Below, in pieces: positions 4,146 through 64,000 of a stretch of DNA of 64,000 nt. Positions within the stretch are counted from its first letter, which is position 1; every line of letters starts with the position of its first letter. The DNA is taken from sequence record MF327005; one strand, written 5' to 3'. Source of the DNA: Shigella phage Sf19. A model generated the notes under the pieces. The model saw only the letters and a program-made list of their open reading frames with translations. It ran no database searches and had not been told where the DNA came from. The position numbers were made by a program, and so were the translations under genes.

Positions 4146-6381
4146 TGGCACAATATACAGTTGATAGTTTTATTGTTGAACTTGGATTCAGTGAAAAGGT
4201 TGTTAAGGGTTTGCAAAGAGTTGAGAAAATGGCTATGCAGTCTGCTCAACGTATCGAACGCAATATCAATAAAGCCTTTGATGTGAAGCCTAATAGAAGT
4301 TCACAAGACGCTCTAAACAGACTTGTAAAAAACGCTCAGACTGCTTCAGGCAGAATCAATAAATCCCTAAACAATGCTATGAATTTAGATTCACAAGGTG
4401 TAAAATCACTTCGTAGATTAGAAACACAGGGTAAGAAAACAGCCAAAGAAATTAATAAGGCTCTAAGACAAGCTATGAATGTTGAAGGTAAAGTCAATGT
4501 TCGTGGTGGAGTTGGTAGAGGCCGTGGTAACACTATCCCTCCGGTTGGAGGTGGTGGTTCACCTAGAGTTAGACCTGATATTGCTCAAAGACAGATGGAA
4601 AGAATGTTTAATAACAACTTCTACTCTGGTTTGACTCGTCGTCTTGAAACAATTGGTGGACAAGGTAACCAAATGGCTACTTCCTTCAGAGGAAGCTTAC
4701 AAGGAATCTATAATAAGTACAAAGGTAGTGGTAAAGTTGGTGAGTATGAGATGGAAGTCAAGAAACTCATTGACACTACCAAACGTTGGGTTATTGCAGA
4801 AAATGCTAGACTTAAGGCAGTCAGAGAGTCAGCTTGGTTACAAGACAGAGCAAACTCTTCACTAAGACAGCTTGTAGGTGGTTTTGTTTCAGCGTATGCT
4901 ATGCTGGAATTAGCTCAGAAGACTATTGATGCAGGTGTAAAGAGACAGTCTGCACAGTTAGCCTCAACAGCTATCTTTGGAGGGGATACACAGCAAGCTA
5001 GAATGTTCGCTGCTACGTTCTCTCACCAGATTGGTCAGAACTACACAGACACTATGAAGCAGTACTCAAACTTCGCTGCTGGTGCTCAACCAGAGTTAGG
5101 TTTTAAAGGGACTCAAGAGTTCTATAAGAACGCTGCTATGTTCTCACGTATTCGTGGTGCTTCTGATGAAGACTTGAAAGGTATCATGATTGCTTTCCAG
5201 CAAATGGCATCTAAAGGTAAGATTCAGGCTGAAGAACTTCGTGGACAGTTAGGTGACCGTTTAGCAGGTGCTGTTCAGTTATTCTCTGATGCTATTGGTA
5301 AAACTCCACAAGAACTTGACAAGATGATGAAAGATGGTCAGCTTCTTGCAAAAGACGTTCTACCAAAAGTCTCAGAAAAAATGAGAGAGCTTGTTGAAGC
5401 AGCAGGTGGTATGAATGCAGTTTCTAAGCAGACAGCTACCTCTATGGGCCAAGCAAAGGCAATGTGGGATAACACCCTTGTAGCTTTGTTTAACAACTCT
5501 AGCGAAGGTATTTCACAACTCTCTAACTCAGTTGCAATGTTCTTGCAAGGTTCCCTTGGTACATCTGAAGCACTTGGTACAGGTATTGGTTACCTTTTAA
5601 AAGGTGCTAGTAACCTCCTAGACTTCGTGACAGATATCATGTACCGCATTTCTTCATTGTACTACACCTCAATGGGTTATTTCAAGGAATTAGATGCTAG
5701 TCAACAGAAACTAATCAAGGATTCTGCTGAGTTGGTTGCTACGTTCACCGCTATTGGTGTTTCAATTGCAGCTATTACAAAAGTCGCTAAAATCTTCGGT
5801 GGCACTGTAGCATTTGTCAAGAGTATCTTTGAAGAAGGTATCTTAGCTAAGATTGCACAGAAGTTTGGATTAACTACAGCAGCAGAAACAGCAGCTACAA
5901 CGGCTGGTGTATCAGCAACCAGAATGGCTCTTGGTGTAGGTGGTTCTGCATTAATGTTATCTGGTTCAGTTGACAAGAATGCTGGAAAGAGATTTAACGA
6001 GGTTAACACACCTAATCCTTTCAATGAAGCTATCTCAGGAATCACTAATCCAAAACGTCCAATGTTCTTTGACCAGAATGGACAACTTCAGTTTGCACAA
6101 TATACCACAGACACTTCTGGAAATATTCAGAGAGTTGATAATGGTTTGTCAAATTGGGATATTATCATGAACAATCTGTCTGAGTCTCTAAATAACTTTG
6201 CAAACAAGTTTAACCAGACACCTATGATGATGACTCCTTCTGGACTACCATTGCAAACTAAGCAGACGCTTAACGTTTCCTTTAATCTGGATGGTAAGCA
6301 GATTGCTACTAAGATGGTGGATATCACTGATAAGAGTCAGGAAGATATTCTGTTAAACTCTAGCTACCCAGAGGATGAATA

Positions 6382-6382: not shown

Positions 6383-9143
<2,761 letters not shown>

Positions 9144-20530: not shown

Positions 20531-20790
20531 GATTTTTTATAAGGCTACTGCCATCCTTCCGCACCCGACCTGACCTCGCCCAACCTTACCTGACTGAACC
20601 ACACCCGACCAAACATCACTTAAAAACCCTTTTCAAAGACTCTTAAGTGATGTAATCGAATTTTTATGTAGCTCCGATTAACTACCCATACCTAACCCCA
20701 CCTTGCCACACCGAACCAGACCAAACCCAGCCTCATTAAAAGACCCTTTTAAAGACCTTTTAAAAAGGAGCCTCCGAAGAGGCTACCTAG
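20531..20790. repeat. composite structured non-coding element, copy A
   Basis: No ORF >=60 aa; two C+A-rich tracts with 10-bp phased ACC units (20551-20610, 20683-20732), 11-bp-stem inverted repeat (20613-20653), hairpin (20653-20680), AT-rich quasi-palindrome; homologous to 21906-22190. Confidence 0.7.
20761..20787 (-). terminator. rho-independent terminator (minus-strand sense)
   Basis: On minus strand AGCCTC-TTCG-GAGGCT followed by CCTTTTT; directly after stop of 20796-21236. Confidence 0.55.
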
Positions 20791-21905: not shown

Positions 21906-22190
21906 AGATTTTTAACGTGGCTACTACCATCCACCCTTACCTCACTTTACCTAACCTGACCTTACCAGACCCAACCGGACACTACCCTACCTAGCGAAAC
22001 CTCATTAAAAGACCCTCTTTAAAGACCTTTTAAAAAGGTGAGTCTCATTTTAATGTAGCTGAGACTAACTACCCTCACCAAACCGGACCAGACCCAACCC
22101 AGCCATACCAGACCATACCACACCCAACCGAACCGAACCTTACCGAGCATCACTTAAAACCCTTTTCAAAGACTCTTAAGTGATGCTGGT
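21906..22190. repeat. composite structured non-coding element, copy B
   Basis: Same modules as copy A in different order: phased tracts 21932-22001 and 22070-22139, quasi-palindrome 22000-22038, hairpin 22041-22066, inverted repeat 22147-22186. Confidence 0.7.
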
Positions 22191-31864: not shown

Positions 31865-32117
31865 TAGTTATCTGAAGGAGGGTTTTGAACCCTTCTATTC
31901 AGAAGAAAGCAGAGAAAAATTTGTAAAAGAGTGCTTGACTAAGATAGAGCAGTTCGGTAAAGTACTCATCAACAAGGGACATGAAGTAAAGTTTGAACAC
32001 TTATCAAAAGATAATGTTGAGCAGTTTGCATTAGCGATTGATGGTTTATCTACAGTTTACATCTTTACCTTGACTAATAAACATTTTGAATATGAAATAT
32101 ATCGGAGAGATTCATGA
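31836..32117 (+). CDS. hypothetical protein
   Basis: 93-aa ORF. Confidence 0.45.
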   Translation: MMTVRSKLIDSYLKEGFEPFYSEESREKFVKECLTKIEQFGKVLINKGHEVKFEHLSKDNVEQFALAIDGLSTVYIFTLTNKHFEYEIYRRDS

Positions 32118-56901: not shown

Positions 56902-57125
56902 CTCCAAAGTTTGAGTTTAAAATCTCAGGTAAGGGGGGCTTTTTCATTTTAAATTTGTGCAGGTATAGTTGCATAGAACTCTGGACAGATTTCTTTAGCT
57001 GAACTCCAAAGGGAAAATTCATTTCAAATTTGTGCAGGTTTAGACTCCAAAGAGCTTTTTCATTTTCAATCTGTGCAGATGCAGTTGGACTCCAAAGGGA
57101 AAATTCATTTTCAAATTGTGCAGGT
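56902..57125. repeat. four tandem direct repeats, iteron-like
   Basis: Units at ~56902-56964, 57004-57039, 57045-57080, 57090-57125, each CTCCAAAG...TTTCATTT(T)CAA(A)TTTGTGCAGGT; followed by C-rich tract 57142-57178. Confidence 0.7.
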
Positions 57126-57298: not shown

Positions 57299-57327
57299 TT
57301 GACTTCATAAATCCAGTCTTATAGTAT
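57299..57327 (+). promoter_or_regulatory. early promoter class I (TTGACT-17-TAGTAT)
   Basis: Followed by ..CATCAACGGGAAACATCCC hairpin and conserved leader AACAATCCTAAACTGGAGAATCTAAAAATG. Confidence 0.55.
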
Positions 57328-57376
57328 TTGCATCAACGGGAAACATCCCAACAATCCTAAACTGGAGAATCTAAAA

Positions 57377-57595: not shown

Positions 57596-57757
57596 ATGAT
57601 TAAAGAAAACGATTTAATACAATACAAAGATTTAGACGGATACCCAAAAATTGGTAAAGTCTTCTATCTCTATAAGTCTGCTATGGGTAATGACTGTATA
57701 GCCCTTACAAATAGCGACAAAATAACCATGAAAGATTTTATAAAAATTATTGCATAA
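57596..57757 (+). CDS. small ORF (below track threshold)
   Basis: 53-aa ORF MIKENDLIQYKD...; no own promoter cassette. Confidence 0.3.
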   Translation: MIKENDLIQYKDLDGYPKIGKVFYLYKSAMGNDCIALTNSDKITMKDFIKIIA

Positions 57758-57762
57758 AGTGC

Positions 57763-57791
57763 TTTACATGGGGTTTAAAAGCTAGTATCTT
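57763..57791 (+). promoter_or_regulatory. early promoter class II (TTTACA-17-TATCTT)
   Basis: Part of conserved cassette AGTGCTTTACATGGGGTTT...AAGCCCCAGATAAAGAGCTTTACCAACAATCCTAAACTGGAGAATCTAAAATG. Confidence 0.55.
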
Positions 57792-57841
57792 AAGCCCCAG
57801 ATAAAGAGCTTTACCAACAATCCTAAACTGGAGAATCTAAA

Positions 57842-58222
57842 ATGAAATATCGTGCGCCTAAATTTATCAACAAAGAAAACTTTCGTAGTATCTTAGAGGA
57901 AACTATGAAAGAAAACTTCAAAGGAAAAATAATTGTTGTTCACGCTTACAATTTTAAGTATGATGTTAATGGTAACCGTATTAACCACTACAAAGCTACT
58001 ATGCTTGATGGTACATTATCCGGTGAAAAAGCTATCATAAATGCTATTGCAGGACGTGGTAAAACTGTGATACGATGCGAAAAAAGACGCTATCAAGGCG
58101 GTAAATATGGGTATGAAGATGCAATGTACCATCTTGATAAAATGGGGTATGATATAGAGAAAGCTGGAGTATCTCAAACTATTGGTAGTGATGGCTACGT
58201 TACAGTTTTCAAAATTAACTAA
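57842..58222 (+). CDS. early protein
   Basis: 126-aa ORF after class II cassette. Confidence 0.55.
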   Translation: MKYRAPKFINKENFRSILEETMKENFKGKIIVVHAYNFKYDVNGNRINHYKATMLDGTLSGEKAIINAIAGRGKTVIRCEKRRYQGGKYGYEDAMYHLDKMGYDIEKAGVSQTIGSDGYVTVFKIN

Positions 58223-58231
58223 ATAAAGTCC

Positions 58232-58260
58232 TTTACATGGGGTTTATAGTTAGATAAGAT
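58232..58260 (+). promoter_or_regulatory. early promoter class II (TTTACA-17-TAAGAT)
   Basis: Conserved cassette copy. Confidence 0.55.
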
Positions 58261-58313
58261 AAGCCCCAGATAAAGAGCTTTACCAAACAATAACCTAAAC
58301 TGGAGTATCAAAA

Positions 58314-58571
58314 ATGGCTACTATCAAAAACATCATTGTATCTGCAAAATCTCGTGATGACGCTCGCGCAACTGCTAAAAAATTAAATGGTAAAGTGGTT
58401 GACAACGGAAAAGAATCTGCTGTAAGATGGGGCGTGAAATGTGATAAGGAAATTACTTTAAAACGTAGTTCCTATGACCTTTTCAAAGGTGTAAAAGCAA
58501 TCGGTAGAACTAACGTCTACACGAAGAAAGGTTATAAAATGCACTTATCATTAACTGACAATTTAATCTGA
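58314..58571 (+). CDS. early small protein
   Basis: 85-aa ORF after class II cassette. Confidence 0.55.
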   Translation: MATIKNIIVSAKSRDDARATAKKLNGKVVDNGKESAVRWGVKCDKEITLKRSSYDLFKGVKAIGRTNVYTKKGYKMHLSLTDNLI

Positions 58572-58579
58572 TAAAGTGC

Positions 58580-58608
58580 TTTACATGGGGTTTATAGTTA
58601 GATAATAT
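58580..58608 (+). promoter_or_regulatory. early promoter class II (TTTACA-17-TAATAT)
   Basis: Conserved cassette copy. Confidence 0.55.
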
Positions 58609-58662
58609 AAGCCCCAGATAAAGAGCTTTACTAACCAATAGTCCTAAACTGGAGAATCTAAA

Positions 58663-59175
58663 ATGAATTTTGTTGAAGCTACCTTTGAAGTCCAAAAAGA
58701 AAAATTCACTATCATCTATGAAGCTGTTAATATTTGTGAAGCATCCCATTGTGTGGAGAATTGGAAGTTTACCGATGAGCACAAAGGCGGGGTTACAATC
58801 AAACTTAAAAATCCAGAGCGTAACGGGTACAAATATGCAACTCCACAGCATTACAGCCTTTCACAATTGATGAGTGATTATGCTAAACAAGGCCGCGAAA
58901 ATCCATCTATAGAGGCTTACAAGAGCTTACAAGATGAATTACAAAGAGATTTAGAAGCTAACAGCTATGTGCTATTTGCAAAGGTAGAAGATAAAGAAGG
59001 TAATACGGTATTAAATAGCTTTTCACTTGCTTATGGTTTCGATTGGTGTTATCTTGACGGGGAAGATTTAGATTCACGATTAGAAGAGGAAGTGTCGAAC
59101 TCCGATGGAGAATCTGAAGTAATGGAACGTTTAGAAGCCTTGAAAGATTCTGTTATGAATATCTTTAATATCTAA
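58663..59175 (+). CDS. early protein
   Basis: 170-aa acidic ORF after class II cassette. Confidence 0.55.
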   Translation: MNFVEATFEVQKEKFTIIYEAVNICEASHCVENWKFTDEHKGGVTIKLKNPERNGYKYATPQHYSLSQLMSDYAKQGRENPSIEAYKSLQDELQRDLEANSYVLFAKVEDKEGNTVLNSFSLAYGFDWCYLDGEDLDSRLEEEVSNSDGESEVMERLEALKDSVMNIFNI

Positions 59176-59181
59176 AAGTGC

Positions 59182-59210
59182 TTTACATGGGGTTATCAAG
59201 TTGATAAGAT
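59182..59210 (+). promoter_or_regulatory. early promoter class II (TTTACA-17-TAAGAT)
   Basis: Conserved cassette copy. Confidence 0.55.
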
Positions 59211-59259
59211 AGCCCCAGATAAAGAGCTTTACAAACAATCCTAAACTGGAGAACCTAAA

Positions 59260-59556
59260 ATGTTTATTGCCGCAAACGTTAGAACTAAATTAAGCCAGCT
59301 ATTAAGCAATATTCAATTCATTGAATCCATGCGCCGTACTTCTGAAGCCGTAGAGTGGTATCATGGAAAGATTAACAAAAAAGAAGTAATAATTTGTGTA
59401 TGGAACTTTTGCAAAGAATACAAAAAACCATTGCTTCAGGTTGATATATATGATAACACTAATAAGTCATCGATTAAGACTACTAGAGATATGGTTGATT
59501 CATATGAAATTAGTCACACTGGTAAAGTATTCCACAAAGGTAAAAACAAATGTTAA
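59260..59556 (+). CDS. early small protein
   Basis: 98-aa ORF after class II cassette. Confidence 0.55.
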   Translation: MFIAANVRTKLSQLLSNIQFIESMRRTSEAVEWYHGKINKKEVIICVWNFCKEYKKPLLQVDIYDNTNKSSIKTTRDMVDSYEISHTGKVFHKGKNKC

Positions 59557-59897
59557 TCACATACACTGCAATTTTTATCTCTATTGTGGCGCTCTATAAA
59601 GCTTTGCAAGCGCACAGTATAGCTAATAAGGCACTTACAAGGGATTTAAAAATAAACCTTGTACGGGGCTTTTTAGAGCGTTTGAGCTTAGAACAATTGA
59701 AACGTTTAGAGATGAGCTTTCGATTTAAAGCAGAAACATACCGGATTGATAACATTCTAGATGGTGATTTTAAATTAATCAGTGATTATGACATACTTCT
59801 TGAGTCAATTCAAGACATAAACCTGAAAGATTATTATATTGTAATAGCGCAAGAAATTAATAAAAAAGAGCTTGCAATGCAGAATCAAAACAAGTAA
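59550..59897 (+). CDS. early protein
   Basis: 115-aa ORF, 7-nt overlap with upstream gene; 3' end contains next promoter. Confidence 0.45.
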   Translation: MLITYTAIFISIVALYKALQAHSIANKALTRDLKINLVRGFLERLSLEQLKRLEMSFRFKAETYRIDNILDGDFKLISDYDILLESIQDINLKDYYIVIAQEINKKELAMQNQNK

Positions 59898-59900
59898 AGT
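59872..59900 (+). promoter_or_regulatory. early promoter class I (TTGCAA-17-TAAAGT)
   Basis: Embedded in last codons of upstream gene; identical 44-bp block recurs at 63322-63365. Confidence 0.55.
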
Positions 59901-59955
59901 ATTCATCAACGGGGCAAGTTATAAGCCCCAACAATCCTAAACTGGAGAATCTAAA

Positions 59956-60228
59956 ATGTATACTACTAATGACGGTCGAACTTTGAACGTAACTTTAAAA
60001 CACTATGTAGACGGTGTATTAAACTTTGAAGAGTTAAGAGCAGAACAGCACCTATTAGATTGGCAGGTAGCAGGTCTACAAAAAACCGCCACAGGATATG
60101 GAAAGAAAATTCCTACATCTTGGAAAGTTCGATACCTTGGAAAGTTACGCAGAATTTATCAAGATGTTTACAGTAATAGCGGTGTAAGTTACATTATTGT
60201 TAGTGGTAAAAAATTGTATTTAGTCTAA
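59956..60228 (+). CDS. early small protein
   Basis: 90-aa ORF after class I cassette. Confidence 0.55.
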   Translation: MYTTNDGRTLNVTLKHYVDGVLNFEELRAEQHLLDWQVAGLQKTATGYGKKIPTSWKVRYLGKLRRIYQDVYSNSGVSYIIVSGKKLYLV

Positions 60229-60236
60229 TAAATTGC

Positions 60237-60265
60237 TTTACATGGGGTTATCAAGTTGCTAAGAT
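60237..60265 (+). promoter_or_regulatory. early promoter class II (TTTACA-17-TAAGAT)
   Basis: Conserved cassette copy. Confidence 0.55.
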
Positions 60266-60317
60266 AGCCCCAGATAAAGAGATTTATCTAAAACTAACCT
60301 AAACTGGAGACTAGAAA

Positions 60318-60725
60318 ATGACTAATGTTAATCACAAAGAAGTTGCAATTTTGAAAGCACGTTTGACCATTAACCGCATCAACATTGTAACATCAGCAGC
60401 ACCAGACGAAACACTACATAATATCATCGGTAAAATTCAGGGCGCAGTAGTAGACACAAAACAGCTTAAAGAATCCTTGCAAGATGTAGCAGCAGGAGCT
60501 ATAATTGACGGTGCTCAGTATGAGATGAAAGAAATGCTGTCAAAGTCAAAAGTAATGAATAAAGAACTTGACTTGAAAATGTTTAGATTTGCTGTTAAAG
60601 TGTGGCTATGTGTTGATTTTGATGCAAACTTTGCAATTGCTGATTTCTTTGCAACATGGTTACAGCGTAACTTACCGGTTGAAGTTTTCCGTGAAATCTG
60701 CGATGCAATTTATTCAGAGATTTGA
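60318..60725 (+). CDS. early protein
   Basis: 135-aa ORF after class II cassette. Confidence 0.55.
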   Translation: MTNVNHKEVAILKARLTINRINIVTSAAPDETLHNIIGKIQGAVVDTKQLKESLQDVAAGAIIDGAQYEMKEMLSKSKVMNKELDLKMFRFAVKVWLCVDFDANFAIADFFATWLQRNLPVEVFREICDAIYSEI

Positions 60726-60754
60726 TTGACATTGCAAAAGCATAGTAGTAGAGT
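60726..60754 (+). promoter_or_regulatory. early promoter class I (TTGACA-17-TAGAGT)
   Basis: Followed by CATCAACGGGGCAAGTTAGAAGCCCC hairpin and conserved leader. Confidence 0.5.
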
Positions 60755-60810
60755 ACTCATCAACGGGGCAAGTTAGAAGCCCCAACAATCCTAAACTGGA
60801 GAATCTGAAA

Positions 60811-61059
60811 ATGTTTAATATGTTGAATATCCCTGATACATGCCGACTCTTAACACAACTTGATAACCTTGGCAAGCCGTTTTTATATCATATGCCAGAT
60901 AACACTGCAAAAACTTACAGTTACATTGTAAACCGTTTTACGGCTTATGGTTCAAAGTATGGCTATAATGTCAAGACTCAAAAAGTGACTTTGTTCACAA
61001 GTATTGAAGAGTTACCAACTGTTGCCGTTAAACTAATCTTTACAAAGAAAACTAAATAA
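60811..61059 (+). CDS. early small protein
   Basis: 82-aa ORF after class I cassette. Confidence 0.55.
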   Translation: MFNMLNIPDTCRLLTQLDNLGKPFLYHMPDNTAKTYSYIVNRFTAYGSKYGYNVKTQKVTLFTSIEELPTVAVKLIFTKKTK

Positions 61060-61064
61060 AGTGC

Positions 61065-61093
61065 TTTACATGGGGTTTATAGTTAGATAAGAT
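61065..61093 (+). promoter_or_regulatory. early promoter class II (TTTACA-17-TAAGAT)
   Basis: Conserved cassette copy. Confidence 0.55.
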
Positions 61094-61143
61094 AAGCCCC
61101 AGATAAAGAGCTTTACCAACAATCCTAAACTGGAGAATCTAAA

Positions 61144-61701
61144 ATGAAATGCTTTCATGGTACTACACAAGAAAACTTTGTAAACCTTATCAATGGCGGT
61201 GATAAACCATCAGGAGCTTGGAATTGCTCTGATATGGATGGATGTTTTTACGTCTACCCTGTTAACAAGTTCTATGATGTAGAGAATCTGGATGACGAAC
61301 AAATCACAGATGAAGGTATTAGAAACGCGCTTGATAGCGCAAGCATTACAGCAGCCTATCAAATGAAGTCACAAAAGCTTGTTATCTTGGAACTGGATAT
61401 TCCAGAAGATGATTTACAAGATGACTGGAGCTGTGAGAACATGAGCGACGTAGCAAGCTTTACAGAATATTTCGATAAAGAATGGATTAAAAAGGTTTAC
61501 ACAACTGAATTTAATGCTATGTATGCACCTTTCTTTGTCCCTAACCTAAACAATAGAAATTTAGGATATGTACCAGACGAACTACGCAACATTGCAGAAA
61601 TAGTCCAACGTAGTGATGGGATGAGCAATGTATATTGTGATATCTTTGACACCATGCAATGCAACGTAACAGAAACGGTTATAAACGACTTAACAGCATA
61701 A
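61144..61701 (+). CDS. early protein
   Basis: 185-aa ORF after class II cassette. Confidence 0.55.
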   Translation: MKCFHGTTQENFVNLINGGDKPSGAWNCSDMDGCFYVYPVNKFYDVENLDDEQITDEGIRNALDSASITAAYQMKSQKLVILELDIPEDDLQDDWSCENMSDVASFTEYFDKEWIKKVYTTEFNAMYAPFFVPNLNNRNLGYVPDELRNIAEIVQRSDGMSNVYCDIFDTMQCNVTETVINDLTA

Positions 61702-61764
61702 ACCATAGAATCACACCAGTTCACTAGAAAAGCCCCGCACAGGGGCTTACAAGAGGCTTAAAAG

Positions 61765-61995
61765 ATGCTTACAACAATCTATCTTATCTTATCTATCTGT
61801 AATGGTTCACAATGTGACTTTAAAGGTTTAGAAGAGTTTACAGGTAGCGAAAATAATGCTATTGTTGCCTGTCAGATAGCAAGGCAAGACTACCCAACAT
61901 CGGATGATATCCAATGTTACTATAAGTCAGAAGATGATGAAGGTATTTACTTTGATAGTGTGAATGGTGAATATGAGATTCTTATAGAAAAGTAG
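61765..61995 (+). CDS. early small protein
   Basis: 76-aa ORF with hydrophobic N-terminus; own leader with hairpin AGCCCC-GCACA-GGGGCT and AAGAGG RBS. Confidence 0.45.
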   Translation: MLTTIYLILSICNGSQCDFKGLEEFTGSENNAIVACQIARQDYPTSDDIQCYYKSEDDEGIYFDSVNGEYEILIEK

Positions 61996-62024
61996 TTGAC
62001 ACTGAAAACGCAAGAAAGTAAAGT
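61996..62024 (+). promoter_or_regulatory. early promoter class I (TTGACA-17-TAAAGT)
   Basis: Followed by CATCAACGGGAAACATCCC hairpin and conserved leader. Confidence 0.55.
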
Positions 62025-62073
62025 ATTCATCAACGGGAAACATCCCAACAATCCTAAACTGGAGATTCAAAAA

Positions 62074-62295
62074 ATGTTGCAAGTTCTTAACGTAAAAACC
62101 ATTGATTTTAAATTCTCAAATGTTCGTCGTACCTATTTACAGCCGTTTAGTAAACCTGTTAGGATTCCCAACGATGACGCTAAAAAGTTGATTGATGAAA
62201 TTCTAGCTAATGGCGGTTATCTGGCTAGTCATAAGCAGTATAATGATGAGGATGGAAGCCTGATAAATGAGTTTACATATTATTACTACAAATAA
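62074..62295 (+). CDS. early small protein
   Basis: Start set at ATG 62074 after the conserved leader; track ORF begins upstream within the promoter. Confidence 0.5.
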   Translation: MLQVLNVKTIDFKFSNVRRTYLQPFSKPVRIPNDDAKKLIDEILANGGYLASHKQYNDEDGSLINEFTYYYYK

Positions 62296-62307
62296 CTAAT
62301 AAAGTGC

Positions 62308-62336
62308 TTTACATGGGGTTTATAGTTAGCTAAGAT
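62308..62336 (+). promoter_or_regulatory. early promoter class II (TTTACA-17-TAAGAT)
   Basis: Conserved cassette copy. Confidence 0.55.
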
Positions 62337-62386
62337 AAGCCCCAGATAAAGAGCTTTACCAACAATCCTAAACTGGAGAATCTAGA

Positions 62387-62584
62387 ATGTTATCACTGAT
62401 GCAAAAACTTTCTACCTTGTGGTGTTTAAAAGGTGTAGAGTGTAACCTTAACATGGAAGGTTCAAAGATAGACCTAAAAATAGTATACAATGGAGAAATA
62501 CTATTCTCACAGAATAGCAGTCATCCACACTTCAAAGATAATGCAATTATGGCCGTGAATAATCTGATGGATAGAATTTATTAA
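62387..62584 (+). CDS. early small protein
   Basis: 65-aa ORF after class II cassette. Confidence 0.5.
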   Translation: MLSLMQKLSTLWCLKGVECNLNMEGSKIDLKIVYNGEILFSQNSSHPHFKDNAIMAVNNLMDRIY

Positions 62585-62589
62585 AGTGC

Positions 62590-62618
62590 TTTACATGGGG
62601 TTTAAAAGCTAGTATCTT
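62590..62618 (+). promoter_or_regulatory. early promoter class II (TTTACA-17-TATCTT)
   Basis: Conserved cassette copy. Confidence 0.55.
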
Positions 62619-62669
62619 AAGCCCCAGATAAAGAGCTTTACCAACAATCCTAAACTGGAGAATCTGAAA

Positions 62670-63139: not shown

Positions 63140-63168
63140 TTGCAAAGGTCTAATCATATCTATATAGT
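63140..63168 (+). promoter_or_regulatory. early promoter class I variant (TTGCAA-17-TATAGT)
   Basis: Followed by leader ...CCTAAACTGGAGAATCACTAAATG. Confidence 0.5.
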
Positions 63169-63207: not shown

Positions 63208-63348
63208 ATGTTAGATATCATTAAAAGCCCTATCCTTTGCGGTATGATTGTTTCTGTTGTGTTGCCATTAGCAATGCTCATCATTGGTGAAATCTCAGAT
63301 AAACTTTTTGATAAAAAACTACTTGCAATGCAGAATCAAAACAAGTAA
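63208..63348 (+). CDS. small membrane peptide (below track threshold)
   Basis: 46-aa hydrophobic ORF; C-terminal MQNQNK codons identical to end of 59550-59897. Confidence 0.35.
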   Translation: MLDIIKSPILCGMIVSVVLPLAMLIIGEISDKLFDKKLLAMQNQNK

Positions 63349-63351
63349 AGT
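63323..63351 (+). promoter_or_regulatory. early promoter class I (TTGCAA-17-TAAAGT)
   Basis: Exact duplicate of block at 59872-59900. Confidence 0.55.
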
Positions 63352-63412
63352 ATTCATCAACGGGGAGGGAGACCTCCCCACTAAACAAAATTCCTAAACT
63401 GGAGAATCTAGA

Positions 63413-63940
63413 ATGAATAAGTTTAATGCTGTTAATGCAATCCGTAGCCGTGAAGTGATGAGCAAGCCTTGTAAAGATACTTGGGAATTTACCTTAAAGA
63501 GCAAAGTTTTTGCAGTTATCACAAAAGGGGAAGATAAGCAGTTTTATGTACACCGACCAAATGTAAAAGCGGTAACAGCCAACAACTTTATGGGGGCTAT
63601 TTCTCTTATTCTGAATGATTATATGGCTATAGTCGCAGAAATTCACGAAATGGCTATTAAGGCAACTAAAAACGAGTTAAACCGCTTTAAAATGGCTTAT
63701 GAGCGCTCTATTAAGTCCCATAATCTTTTTATTGCAATCCACTATACAGGCATGTATGCTATGGGAACGGGTAACCAACAATACCCACTCTATGAAGTGG
63801 AAAACATCTTTACAAGTGACTACCCAACAACTAATTTTAAAATTACGTTAGGGGAAGCATTAAATAGGGGAATTAGGCTTTACGAACAATCTTTAAAAAA
63901 CTTAGAAAATTCCCTTGACGAAATCATCACAAATCTATAA
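63413..63940 (+). CDS. early protein
   Basis: 175-aa ORF after class I cassette. Confidence 0.55.
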   Translation: MNKFNAVNAIRSREVMSKPCKDTWEFTLKSKVFAVITKGEDKQFYVHRPNVKAVTANNFMGAISLILNDYMAIVAEIHEMAIKATKNELNRFKMAYERSIKSHNLFIAIHYTGMYAMGTGNQQYPLYEVENIFTSDYPTTNFKITLGEALNRGIRLYEQSLKNLENSLDEIITNL

Positions 63941-63943
63941 AGT
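63915..63943 (+). promoter_or_regulatory. early promoter class I (TTGACG-17-TAAAGT)
   Basis: -10 overlaps upstream stop codon; conserved leader runs to window end, so the array continues. Confidence 0.5.
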
Positions 63944-64000
63944 ACTTATCAACGGGGAGGGAATGACCTTCCCCAACAATCCTAAACTGGAGACTAGAAA

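Follow-up and report, generated by a model that had tools for sequence, protein, structure and literature searches.

The closest described analogue of the repeats analysed here is the promoter-early stem-loop (PeSL) cassette of T4-type phages (Arbiol, Comeau and Krisch 2010, PMC2839356; Comeau et al. 2014, PMC4122927). PeSLs are repeated regulatory cassettes of about 100 bp, mostly intergenic, that lie among small genes of unknown function (PMC2839356). Each combines a sigma-70-like early promoter and an AT-rich upstream tract (PMC2839356) with a stem-loop. Promoter and terminator activity and the formation of mini-circles have been shown experimentally for PeSLs, whereas the promoters described below are predicted from sequence. 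In a full-text literature search PeSLs were discussed only for T4-like phages, and none was reported for the subfamily considered here.

By description, the locus presented here has the same features: a conserved promoter, an upstream tract, a stem-loop, clustering in a plastic region, and indels and replacements between close relatives that are bounded by cassettes. A GGGG...CCCC stem-loop lies past the -10 hexamer (class B below) or encloses the spacer and the -10 (class A below), and these positions match the PeSL subclasses. The genome is not of T4 type and belongs to the Ounavirinae, genus Mooglevirus; the cassettes are therefore regarded as PeSL-like in their working and are not filed in the T4-type PeSL family. 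They differ from PeSLs in three further respects: an invariant translation leader, CCTAAACTGGAGAATCTAAAATG, is added at which crossovers also take place, the upstream coding sequence extends into the promoter, and exchange is visible below the level of the cassette, between promoter, hairpin and leader modules.

Three other systems share single features with the locus. Concerted evolution of dispersed repeats likewise leaves the copies within a genome more alike than orthologues, with a tract length that depends on the lineage; the repeats here are very short (44-97 nt) and regulatory, and are not gene families. C-terminal extension by loss of a stop codon has its counterpart in an orthologue that reads TAG (ESh22, L015) where the window reads GAG, with the difference that the captured DNA looks like an active promoter and the new stop comes from the -10 hexamer. 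Halovirus HF2 (PMC8707807) has several classes of short repeats between its genes, and these repeats carry promoters, but HF2 is an archaeal virus with an archaeal promoter architecture. The Felix O1 genome paper contains no description of the present cassettes (PMC3185647).

A 44-bp repeat in an array of small genes

The window is a 64,000-nt stretch of the genome of Shigella phage Sf19 (MF327005), a Felix O1-like myovirus whose sequence in this region matches that of Shigella phage Sf13 at 98.7% identity. Phages of the Felix O1 group are in wide use for therapy and typing and are unrelated to the T4-type phages. From about 57.3 kb to its end the window holds an array of small genes on the + strand, each with a leader upstream. 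Two of these genes, here called A and B, run into copies of the same 44-mer, CTTGCAATGCAGAATCAAAACAAGTAAAGTATTCATCAACGGGG, and the genes that flank the block match only PHROGs of unknown function in a PHROG search.

59550..59897, + strand: gene A, 115 aa, phrog_4375, unknown function; residues 108-115 promoter-encoded
59871..59914, + strand: block copy 1, promoter core and start of leader; overlaps the last 8 codons and the stop of gene A
59956..60228, + strand: gene 3' of copy 1, 90 aa, phrog_3436; copy 1 is its presumed promoter
63208..63348, + strand: gene B, 46 aa, predicted small membrane protein, phrog_7482; tail promoter-encoded
63322..63365, + strand: block copy 2, identical to copy 1; overlaps the last 8 codons and the stop of gene B
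63413..63940, + strand: gene 3' of copy 2, 175 aa, phrog_4725

The identity of the two blocks, which the first-pass annotation had pointed out, is exact on recount. The 44-mer occurs twice in the window, both times on the + strand, and has no further match there at three or fewer mismatches; 100 shuffles give an expectation of 0.00 matches by chance. Similarity continues more weakly for 14 nt upstream, so that 59857-59914 and 63308-63365 are 93% identical over 58 nt (repeat family D10). By length the block ranks only eighth among the exact direct repeats of the window. The seven longer ones (48-84 nt) all lie in the 57.3-64 kb array, where they are parts of other cassettes, and of the exact repeats of at least 24 nt in the window only one falls outside the array.

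The proteins A and B both end in LAMQNQNK and are otherwise unrelated, as had been noted: their similarity in BLASTP is confined to the last 12 residues, and they belong to separate PHROG families. The shared peptide had been taken to suggest recombination events that put new ORF bodies in front of one common tail. We consider it probable instead that the block is the promoter module of a cassette whose copies are kept identical by recombination, and that the shared tail is incidental to two ORFs ending inside a promoter.

Anatomy of the cassettes

About 15 cassettes lie upstream of the small early genes at 57.3-64 kb. Each is made up of an A-rich upstream tract, a promoter, a GGGG...CCCC hairpin and the invariant ribosome-binding (Shine-Dalgarno) leader. 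With such a cassette, almost every small ORF of the array would be equipped with expression signals of its own. The leader, TCCTAAACTGGAGA(ATCTAAA)ATG, has 15 copies in the window against 0.59 expected, and most related loci have 10-18. In class A cassettes (n=8) the GGGG...CCCC arms stand around the spacer and the -10. Class B (n=6), called class I in the first-pass annotation, has an A-rich tract, a TTGACA-like -35, exactly 17 nt of spacer and a TAAAGT-like -10, followed by AyTyATCAAC, the GGGG...CCCC hairpin and the leader. Both block copies belong to class B.

59857..59870, + strand: A-rich tract TTAATAAAAAAGAG, 5' of the -35 of copy 1; similar to 63308-63321
59872-59877 (copy 1) and 63323-63328 (copy 2), + strand: -35 TTGCAA; its TTG is invariant in the six class-B cassettes
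59895-59900 (copy 1) and 63346-63351 (copy 2), + strand: -10 TAAAGT
59911..59929, + strand: hairpin H1 (GGGGC-9 nt-GCCCC), -12.6 kcal/mol; identity with copy 2 ends here
63362..63379, + strand: hairpin H2 (GGGGAGG-GAGA-CCTCCCC), 3' of copy 2, -19.0 kcal/mol, z -3.7
59935..59958, + strand: leader TCCTAAACTGGAGAATCTAAA and ATG of the next gene; the equivalent for copy 2 is 63392-63415
57299..57368, + strand: class-B cassette c1, first in the array; TTGACT-N17-TAGTAT, GGGA-AACA-TCCC hairpin, leader
60726..60802, + strand: class-B cassette c3; TTGACA-N17-TAGAGT, H1 hairpin, leader
61996..62065, + strand: class-B cassette c4; TTGACA-N17-TAAAGT, GGGA-AACA-TCCC hairpin, leader
63915..63993, + strand: class-B cassette c6; TTGACG-N17-TAAAGT, H2-like hairpin, leader
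63140..63168, + strand: promoter-like site 5' of gene B, TTGCAA-N17-TATAGT

The block itself consists of a predicted early promoter of the host sigma-70 type, TTGCAA-N17-TAAAGT, and about 14 nt that lead to the 5' arm of the leader hairpin. A promoter overlapping the two coding 3' ends had already been proposed, and the prediction is upheld here: the first three bases of the -10 are the stop codon TAA of gene A in copy 1 and of gene B in copy 2. The hexamers match the sigma-70 consensus at 8 of 12 positions and, since the promoter scan had a threshold of 9 of 12, are missing from its list. The sister copies at 60726 and 61996 match at 10 of 12 and are listed, and the block is assigned as a promoter because of its positional homology with these sisters and its pattern of conservation. 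All six class-B copies have TTG, TA..T and ATCAACGGG without variation, whereas their spacers are mutually unrelated except for the identical spacers of the two block copies; invariant hexamer positions next to variable spacers therefore make a promoter-type footprint. A-rich tracts precede the -35 in the class-B copies (for example AATTAATAAAAAAGAG, TTTTGATAAAAAACTA and TATTTTAAAAATTTTTG). The one at 59857..59870 resembles an UP element and also codes for the Lys/Asn-rich residues that precede the tail of gene A.

With +1 placed about 7-8 nt past the -10, transcription would start near 59908 and 63359. The predicted leaders of all six class-B cassettes fold as G/C-clamped hairpins (-7.9 to -19 kcal/mol) that begin, again in six of six, 3 nt from the predicted +1. 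Such a hairpin may act as a 5' stabiliser of the mRNA or as an attenuator. The hairpins have no U-tract, and the sequence therefore does not support a role as terminators. An Rfam scan of 57-64 kb returned nothing relevant, and the literature yielded no mapping of transcription starts in Felixounavirus or Mooglevirus.

Recombination between cassettes

Both junctions were extracted from about 20 related genomes, and an IMG/VR scan for the promoter subfamily added one more (L015). The 5' half of the spacer falls into three types, each of which is found at locus A and locus B of the same genomes: TGCAG in the window, Sf13 and 3HA14, TAAAG in Michonne, and AAGGCA in Silverhawkium, CHB7 and ESh22. 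From one lineage to another the distance between orthologous blocks is 5-6 nt, or 3-7 nt at its widest; within a genome, the A and B blocks differ by 0-2 nt in eight of ten cases (0, 0, 0, 1, 2, 1, 0, 1). The co-variation of A and B, which is drawn from a few variable sites in 44 nt and from three lineages, has P = 0.0145 in a rough permutation test with eight distinct haplotype pairs. Paralogues are closer to each other than to their orthologues in the TGCAG, TAAAG (1 mismatch) and AAGGCA lineages, the pattern expected of concerted evolution. In L015 and mistaenkt the A and B copies are unlike (7 and 13 differences). Gene B is window-like in these two genomes (95-97%) but gene A is only 57-62% identical, and they are for this reason regarded as inter-lineage mosaics; as exceptions they mean that homogenisation is not universal.

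The modules of the cassette are also exchanged one by one. At locus A spacer and hairpin occur in four combinations, TGCAG with H1 (Sf13 group), TAAAG with H2 (Michonne), AAGGCA with H1 (ESh22) and AAGGCA with H2 (Silverhawkium), and crossovers are therefore placed in the invariant core ATCAACGGGG. In some lineages the identity of A and B takes in the whole cassette: the two cassettes match over about 97 nt with 2 mismatches in Michonne, and over about 92 nt with 1 mismatch in Silverhawkium and CHB7. In the window lineage it ends at GGGG, since the hairpin at locus A is H1; together with its leader this hairpin shares 94% identity over 64 nt with the cassette at 60747-60810 (repeat family D9). 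The cassette at locus A is thus to all appearances a chimera of a locus-B type promoter and a hairpin of the 60.7-kb type, and this chimera explains the 3' edge of the 44-bp block. Cassette c3 is the likely donor type for its 3' half. The GGGG edge would accordingly mark a module junction, with H1 at locus A and H2 at locus B.

Cassette modules bound the gain and loss of genes as well. Gene B has no orthologue in Moogle, SUSP2, phiSUSP1 and Felix O1, and its indel has two kinds of junction. One is leader-to-leader: in Moogle, SUSP2 and phiSUSP1 a single leader replaces the window's succession of leader, gene B, block, hairpin and leader (about 204 bp). The other, in Felix O1, is -35-to--35: the -35 region of the promoter-like site upstream of gene B (63140..63168 in the window) runs straight into a spacer and -10 of the block type (TTGCAA-tcagctATCAAAACAAG-TAAATT). 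The joined promoter of Felix O1 differs from the block of the window at 8 of 44 positions, against 19 of 44 for the locus-A promoter of Felix O1 itself. Together with a homologue in Avunavirus, described below, these data suggest that the block type was native to the B/D locus and was then copied onto locus A. ESh22 has an additional gene cassette after gene B, orthologous to 62387-62584 of the window. KPS64 carries a 127-bp tandem duplication from the middle of gene B to the leader, and with it three copies of the block.

The two copies in the window would then be paralogous promoters that are held identical by non-reciprocal homologous recombination between cassettes, and gene conversion is the probable homogenising process. 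A 3451-bp deletion, the product of a reciprocal crossover between the two copies, was found in 0 of 29 records, and no phage record covers the crossover product (body of gene A, block and gene D) to at least 80% in one piece. If exchange is active, a 3.45-kb circle with about nine early genes would be expected from the two 44-bp copies. Recombination had also been invoked in the first-pass annotation, and that part of its account stands as far as it concerns exchange between cassettes, for which the co-variation, the four combinations and the module-bounded indels all speak; the joining of ORF bodies to a common tail does not, as set out below.

Selection or another kind of element

Purifying or co-adaptive selection could keep two promoters alike without any exchange of DNA, if a lineage-specific factor or RNA polymerase context demanded the exact sequence. 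Conservation of AATCAAAACAAGTAAAGTA and ATCAACGGGG between lineages that share no more than about 60% identity in the flanking genes, and the invariance of ATCAACGGG in all class-B cassettes, would follow from such a demand. It would not extend to the spacer, as the four other class-B promoters have unrelated spacers and none in particular is required. Yet it is the 5' half of the spacer, at the 2-4 positions that differ between lineages, that shifts in parallel at both loci, and the tract shared in Michonne and in Silverhawkium/CHB7 covers a hairpin and a leader that vary freely elsewhere. The module-bounded indels and the four-gamete combinations demonstrate exchange directly, and selection as the sole cause is unlikely.

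The block might also be a cis element other than a promoter, such as the operator of a regulator, a site of recombination, or an element that governs the processing or stability of a long early RNA. Its match to the consensus at no more than 8 of 12 positions would fit this, as would the conserved AyTyATCAACGGGG after the -10, which sigma-70 recognition alone does not explain. Sf17, which lacks the -10 at both loci, is viable, and neither copy is essential. Against these points stand a -35/-10 spacing of exactly 17 in six of six cassettes with the canonical invariant TTG and TA...T, the A-rich tract upstream, and a position fixed relative to the hairpin, the Shine-Dalgarno sequence and the ATG. 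There is no Rfam match, and for Felix O1 the genome paper reports a few promoters of the host type but no RNA polymerase encoded by the phage (PMC3185647). A non-promoter function is very unlikely on this evidence.

The state of Sf17 raised a separate possibility, that the block is a target of host defence whose loss was favoured. A search of 5,426 complete E. coli genomes gave no match to the block, as a CRISPR spacer or otherwise, and the idea was rejected.

Origin of the shared tail

In the preferred account, by which the block is a promoter module homogenised by recombination, the peptide LAMQNQNK is a by-product. Both ORFs run into the predicted promoter in one reading frame, in which CTT GCA spells Leu-Ala across the -35, and both terminate with the TAA that opens the -10; the common tail needs nothing more than two ORFs that enter homologous promoters in one frame.

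The two ORFs have come to this arrangement by different routes. At the gene A locus the promoter is at the same position in every relative examined, and the relatives differ in where the ORF stops. Gene A ends in ESh22 and in the metagenomic L015 at a TAG that abuts CTTGCAA (...AAA AAA TAG CTT GCA...), where the window has GAG at 59868-59870 (...AAA AAA GAG CTT GCA...). The stop is 7 nt upstream of the promoter in Silverhawkium and CHB7, about 15 nt upstream in SUSP2 and mistaenkt, and a TGA within the -35 in Felix O1. Read-through is confined to the clade of the window/Sf13, Michonne/Moogle and phiSUSP1, where the tail reads LAMQNQNK, LAIKNQNK, LAIKNQNN or LAMKNQNK. Because the ORFs of relatives stop before or at a promoter of the same position, the tail of gene A is evidently a derived read-through of promoter DNA after loss of a stop codon (TAG against GAG). 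The orthologue has its stop at the position of a sense codon and the DNA downstream is homologous; the in-frame stop in ESh22 and L015 therefore means that the 8 extra residues of gene A are translated DNA that was formerly non-coding. The new stop is supplied by the TAA of TAAAGT, and the added peptide is therefore expected to be constrained by the function of the promoter, not of the protein. The sequence AATCAAAACAAG is unchanged between relatives that translate it and those that do not.

The protein record agrees. The body of gene A is collinear and orthologous through residue 107, the last before the tail, in 240 of 240 matching records, and among the matches listed of the 208 records with orthologues below 60% identity all align only to residue 107. 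The phrog_4375 profile has 110 positions. In KMM2 a -1 frameshift in the A-run just 5' of the -35, and in Sf17 a 30-nt deletion that takes out the -10 and the stop, give gene A quite different tails. Whether the C-terminal residues are dispensable had been raised with the original observation; for gene A, these variants and the tail-less ORF of ESh22 are natural evidence that they are.

For gene B the overlap of promoter and coding sequence is ancestral. All orthologues examined end at the TAA of the -10, except for the deletion variant in Sf17, and the forms of Silverhawkium and ESh22, which are only 58-62% identical, have the tail LAKANQNK and end there too. A homologue in Avunavirus (Vequintavirinae), 49% identical, ends in KRLANKSKTN* over a promoter-like TTGCCA-N17-TAATAT. 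Comparative genomics at the two loci, which the first-pass annotation had named as the means of checking its claim, thus separates a derived tail in gene A from an ancestral overlap in gene B. The overlap recurs at a third ORF, 63413-63940, whose stop TAA (63938-63940) starts the -10 of the next class-B promoter, and ORF/promoter overlap is therefore a general arrangement in the array. In Sf18 a deletion of about 51 nt begins at the 5' arm of the hairpin and takes the start codon of the following gene with it.

That tail and promoter form a portable coding-and-regulatory module onto which recombination fused unrelated ORF bodies, the model first put forward for this repeat, would fit the confinement of A/B similarity to the last 12 residues, the behaviour of gene B with its embedded promoter as a mobile unit present or absent between cassette repeats, and the similar promoter-like end of the Avunavirus homologue, but it is highly improbable given relatives of gene A that stop 0-15 nt before a promoter in the same position, a single TAG/GAG difference that suffices, a gene A body with no body/tail junction in any of the 240 records, and tail residues that vary or are missing in viable isolates.

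Implications for phage genome architecture

The overlap of coding and regulatory sequence is on this account a simple consequence of genome architecture, and gene A provides a clean natural example of how the loss of a single stop codon gives rise to a protein tail from promoter DNA. Annotation is affected directly, as databases contain several ORFs here that either extend through cassettes or begin within -35 hexamers. When these phages are engineered, deletions and rearrangements are likely to occur at the short repeats.

The idea developed for PeSLs, in which cassettes are preferred recombination sites for small accessory genes, is extended here to the Felix O1 group. More broadly, and only tentatively, the early-gene arrays of the Ounavirinae may be built from PeSL-like mobile cassettes in which promoter, hairpin and leader each serve as crossover points, driving the gain and loss of genes, the formation of chimeras and the concerted evolution of promoters, with promoter DNA repeatedly captured as C-terminal tails; we hold this wider view to be possible but somewhat less than probable. 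As a contribution to phage genome architecture the finding is neat but modest, and its main interest lies in the evidence for PeSL-like shuffling in Felix O1-like phages, together with a clear case of promoter DNA captured as coding sequence.

Losses and gains of the block in related phages

Both copies of the 44-bp block, which carries a predicted promoter core at loci A and B, have been lost from Shigella phage Sf17 through two different deletions (related sequence L011, positions 4839-4873 and 8137-8160). At locus A 30 nt are missing, with the junction GCAATGC|GGGGCAAG, and at locus B 45 nt, with the junction AAACTA|GGGAGAC. In both cases the -10 is gone and the ORF upstream acquires a different tail. 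Selection against either the promoter or the repeat is one possible cause of the double loss, and an assembly error is another. In Shigella phage Sf18 (L021, about 1523-1545) a deletion of approximately 51 nt at locus A begins in the 5′ arm of the hairpin and takes out both the Shine-Dalgarno sequence and the start codon of the next gene; that record annotates a replacement ORF whose first codon is the -35 hexamer's TTG. Shigella phage KPS64 (L022, 6051-6221) has gained a copy, bringing its genome total to three. Here a 127-bp tandem duplication, which starts midway through gene B and reaches the leader, supplies the second block copy, and its junction reads GGAGAATCT|TTGGTGAAATC.

Class-A cassettes

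The near-palindrome TAAAGNNCTTTA occurs 13 times in the window against 0.19 expected, at sites spanning 57755-62640, and all 13 lie within class-A cassettes, those in which GGGG...CCCC arms enclose the spacer and the -10. Two example sites are:

57755-57766, TAAAGNNCTTTA site in a class-A cassette
57802-57813, TAAAGNNCTTTA site in a class-A cassette

The sites are mostly paired at a spacing of 47 nt, one on either side of the promoter and hairpin, and the first TAA of the upstream site often terminates the preceding ORF. The element may serve as the operator of an early-gene regulator, or it may add further stem structure. The longest exact direct repeat in the window (84 bp, 57755-57838 and 62582-62665) comprises a whole class-A cassette, with the upstream ORF's stop codon at one end and the leader at the other, which suggests that class-A cassettes are homogenised too.

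One annotated start within the array is in doubt:

61996-62295, 99-aa ORF starting at the TTG of a -35 hexamer, annotated so in Sf13 as gp45

An in-frame ATG at 62074, after the standard leader, would give a 73-aa product, and the 99-aa ORF is probably mis-started.

Elements outside the cassette array

Just ahead of the cassette that opens the early array lie a terminator-like hairpin and its T-run (~56927-56950) and, after them, about three tandem repeats of 41-45 nt (57003-57124). A solitary class-B-like promoter, TTGACT-N17-TAAAGT-ACTCATCAAC, is present at 31935-31977 within an apparent open coding frame, with no hairpin or leader downstream; an internal promoter and a relic are both possible readings. 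Two intergenic tracts (20560-20735 and 21935-22144) are ACC-rich with a 5-nt periodicity, e.g., CCTAACCTGACCTTACCAGACCCAACC, and near them a 30-bp exact repeat (20623-20652 and 22156-22185) lies between minus-strand genes.

A gene B homologue in Avunavirus

The 46-aa protein B has a homologue, 49% identical, in the Avunavirus (Vequintavirinae) phages Av-05 (L009) and 19-1-2 (L010), at 1501-1638. The homologous gene likewise runs at its 3′ end into a promoter-like sequence, TTGCCA-N17-TAATAT, and its stop codon falls inside the -10; the locus is devoid of the Ounavirinae hairpin and leader. This distribution suggests that gene B, a putative small membrane-protein gene, has been exchanged between phage subfamilies.
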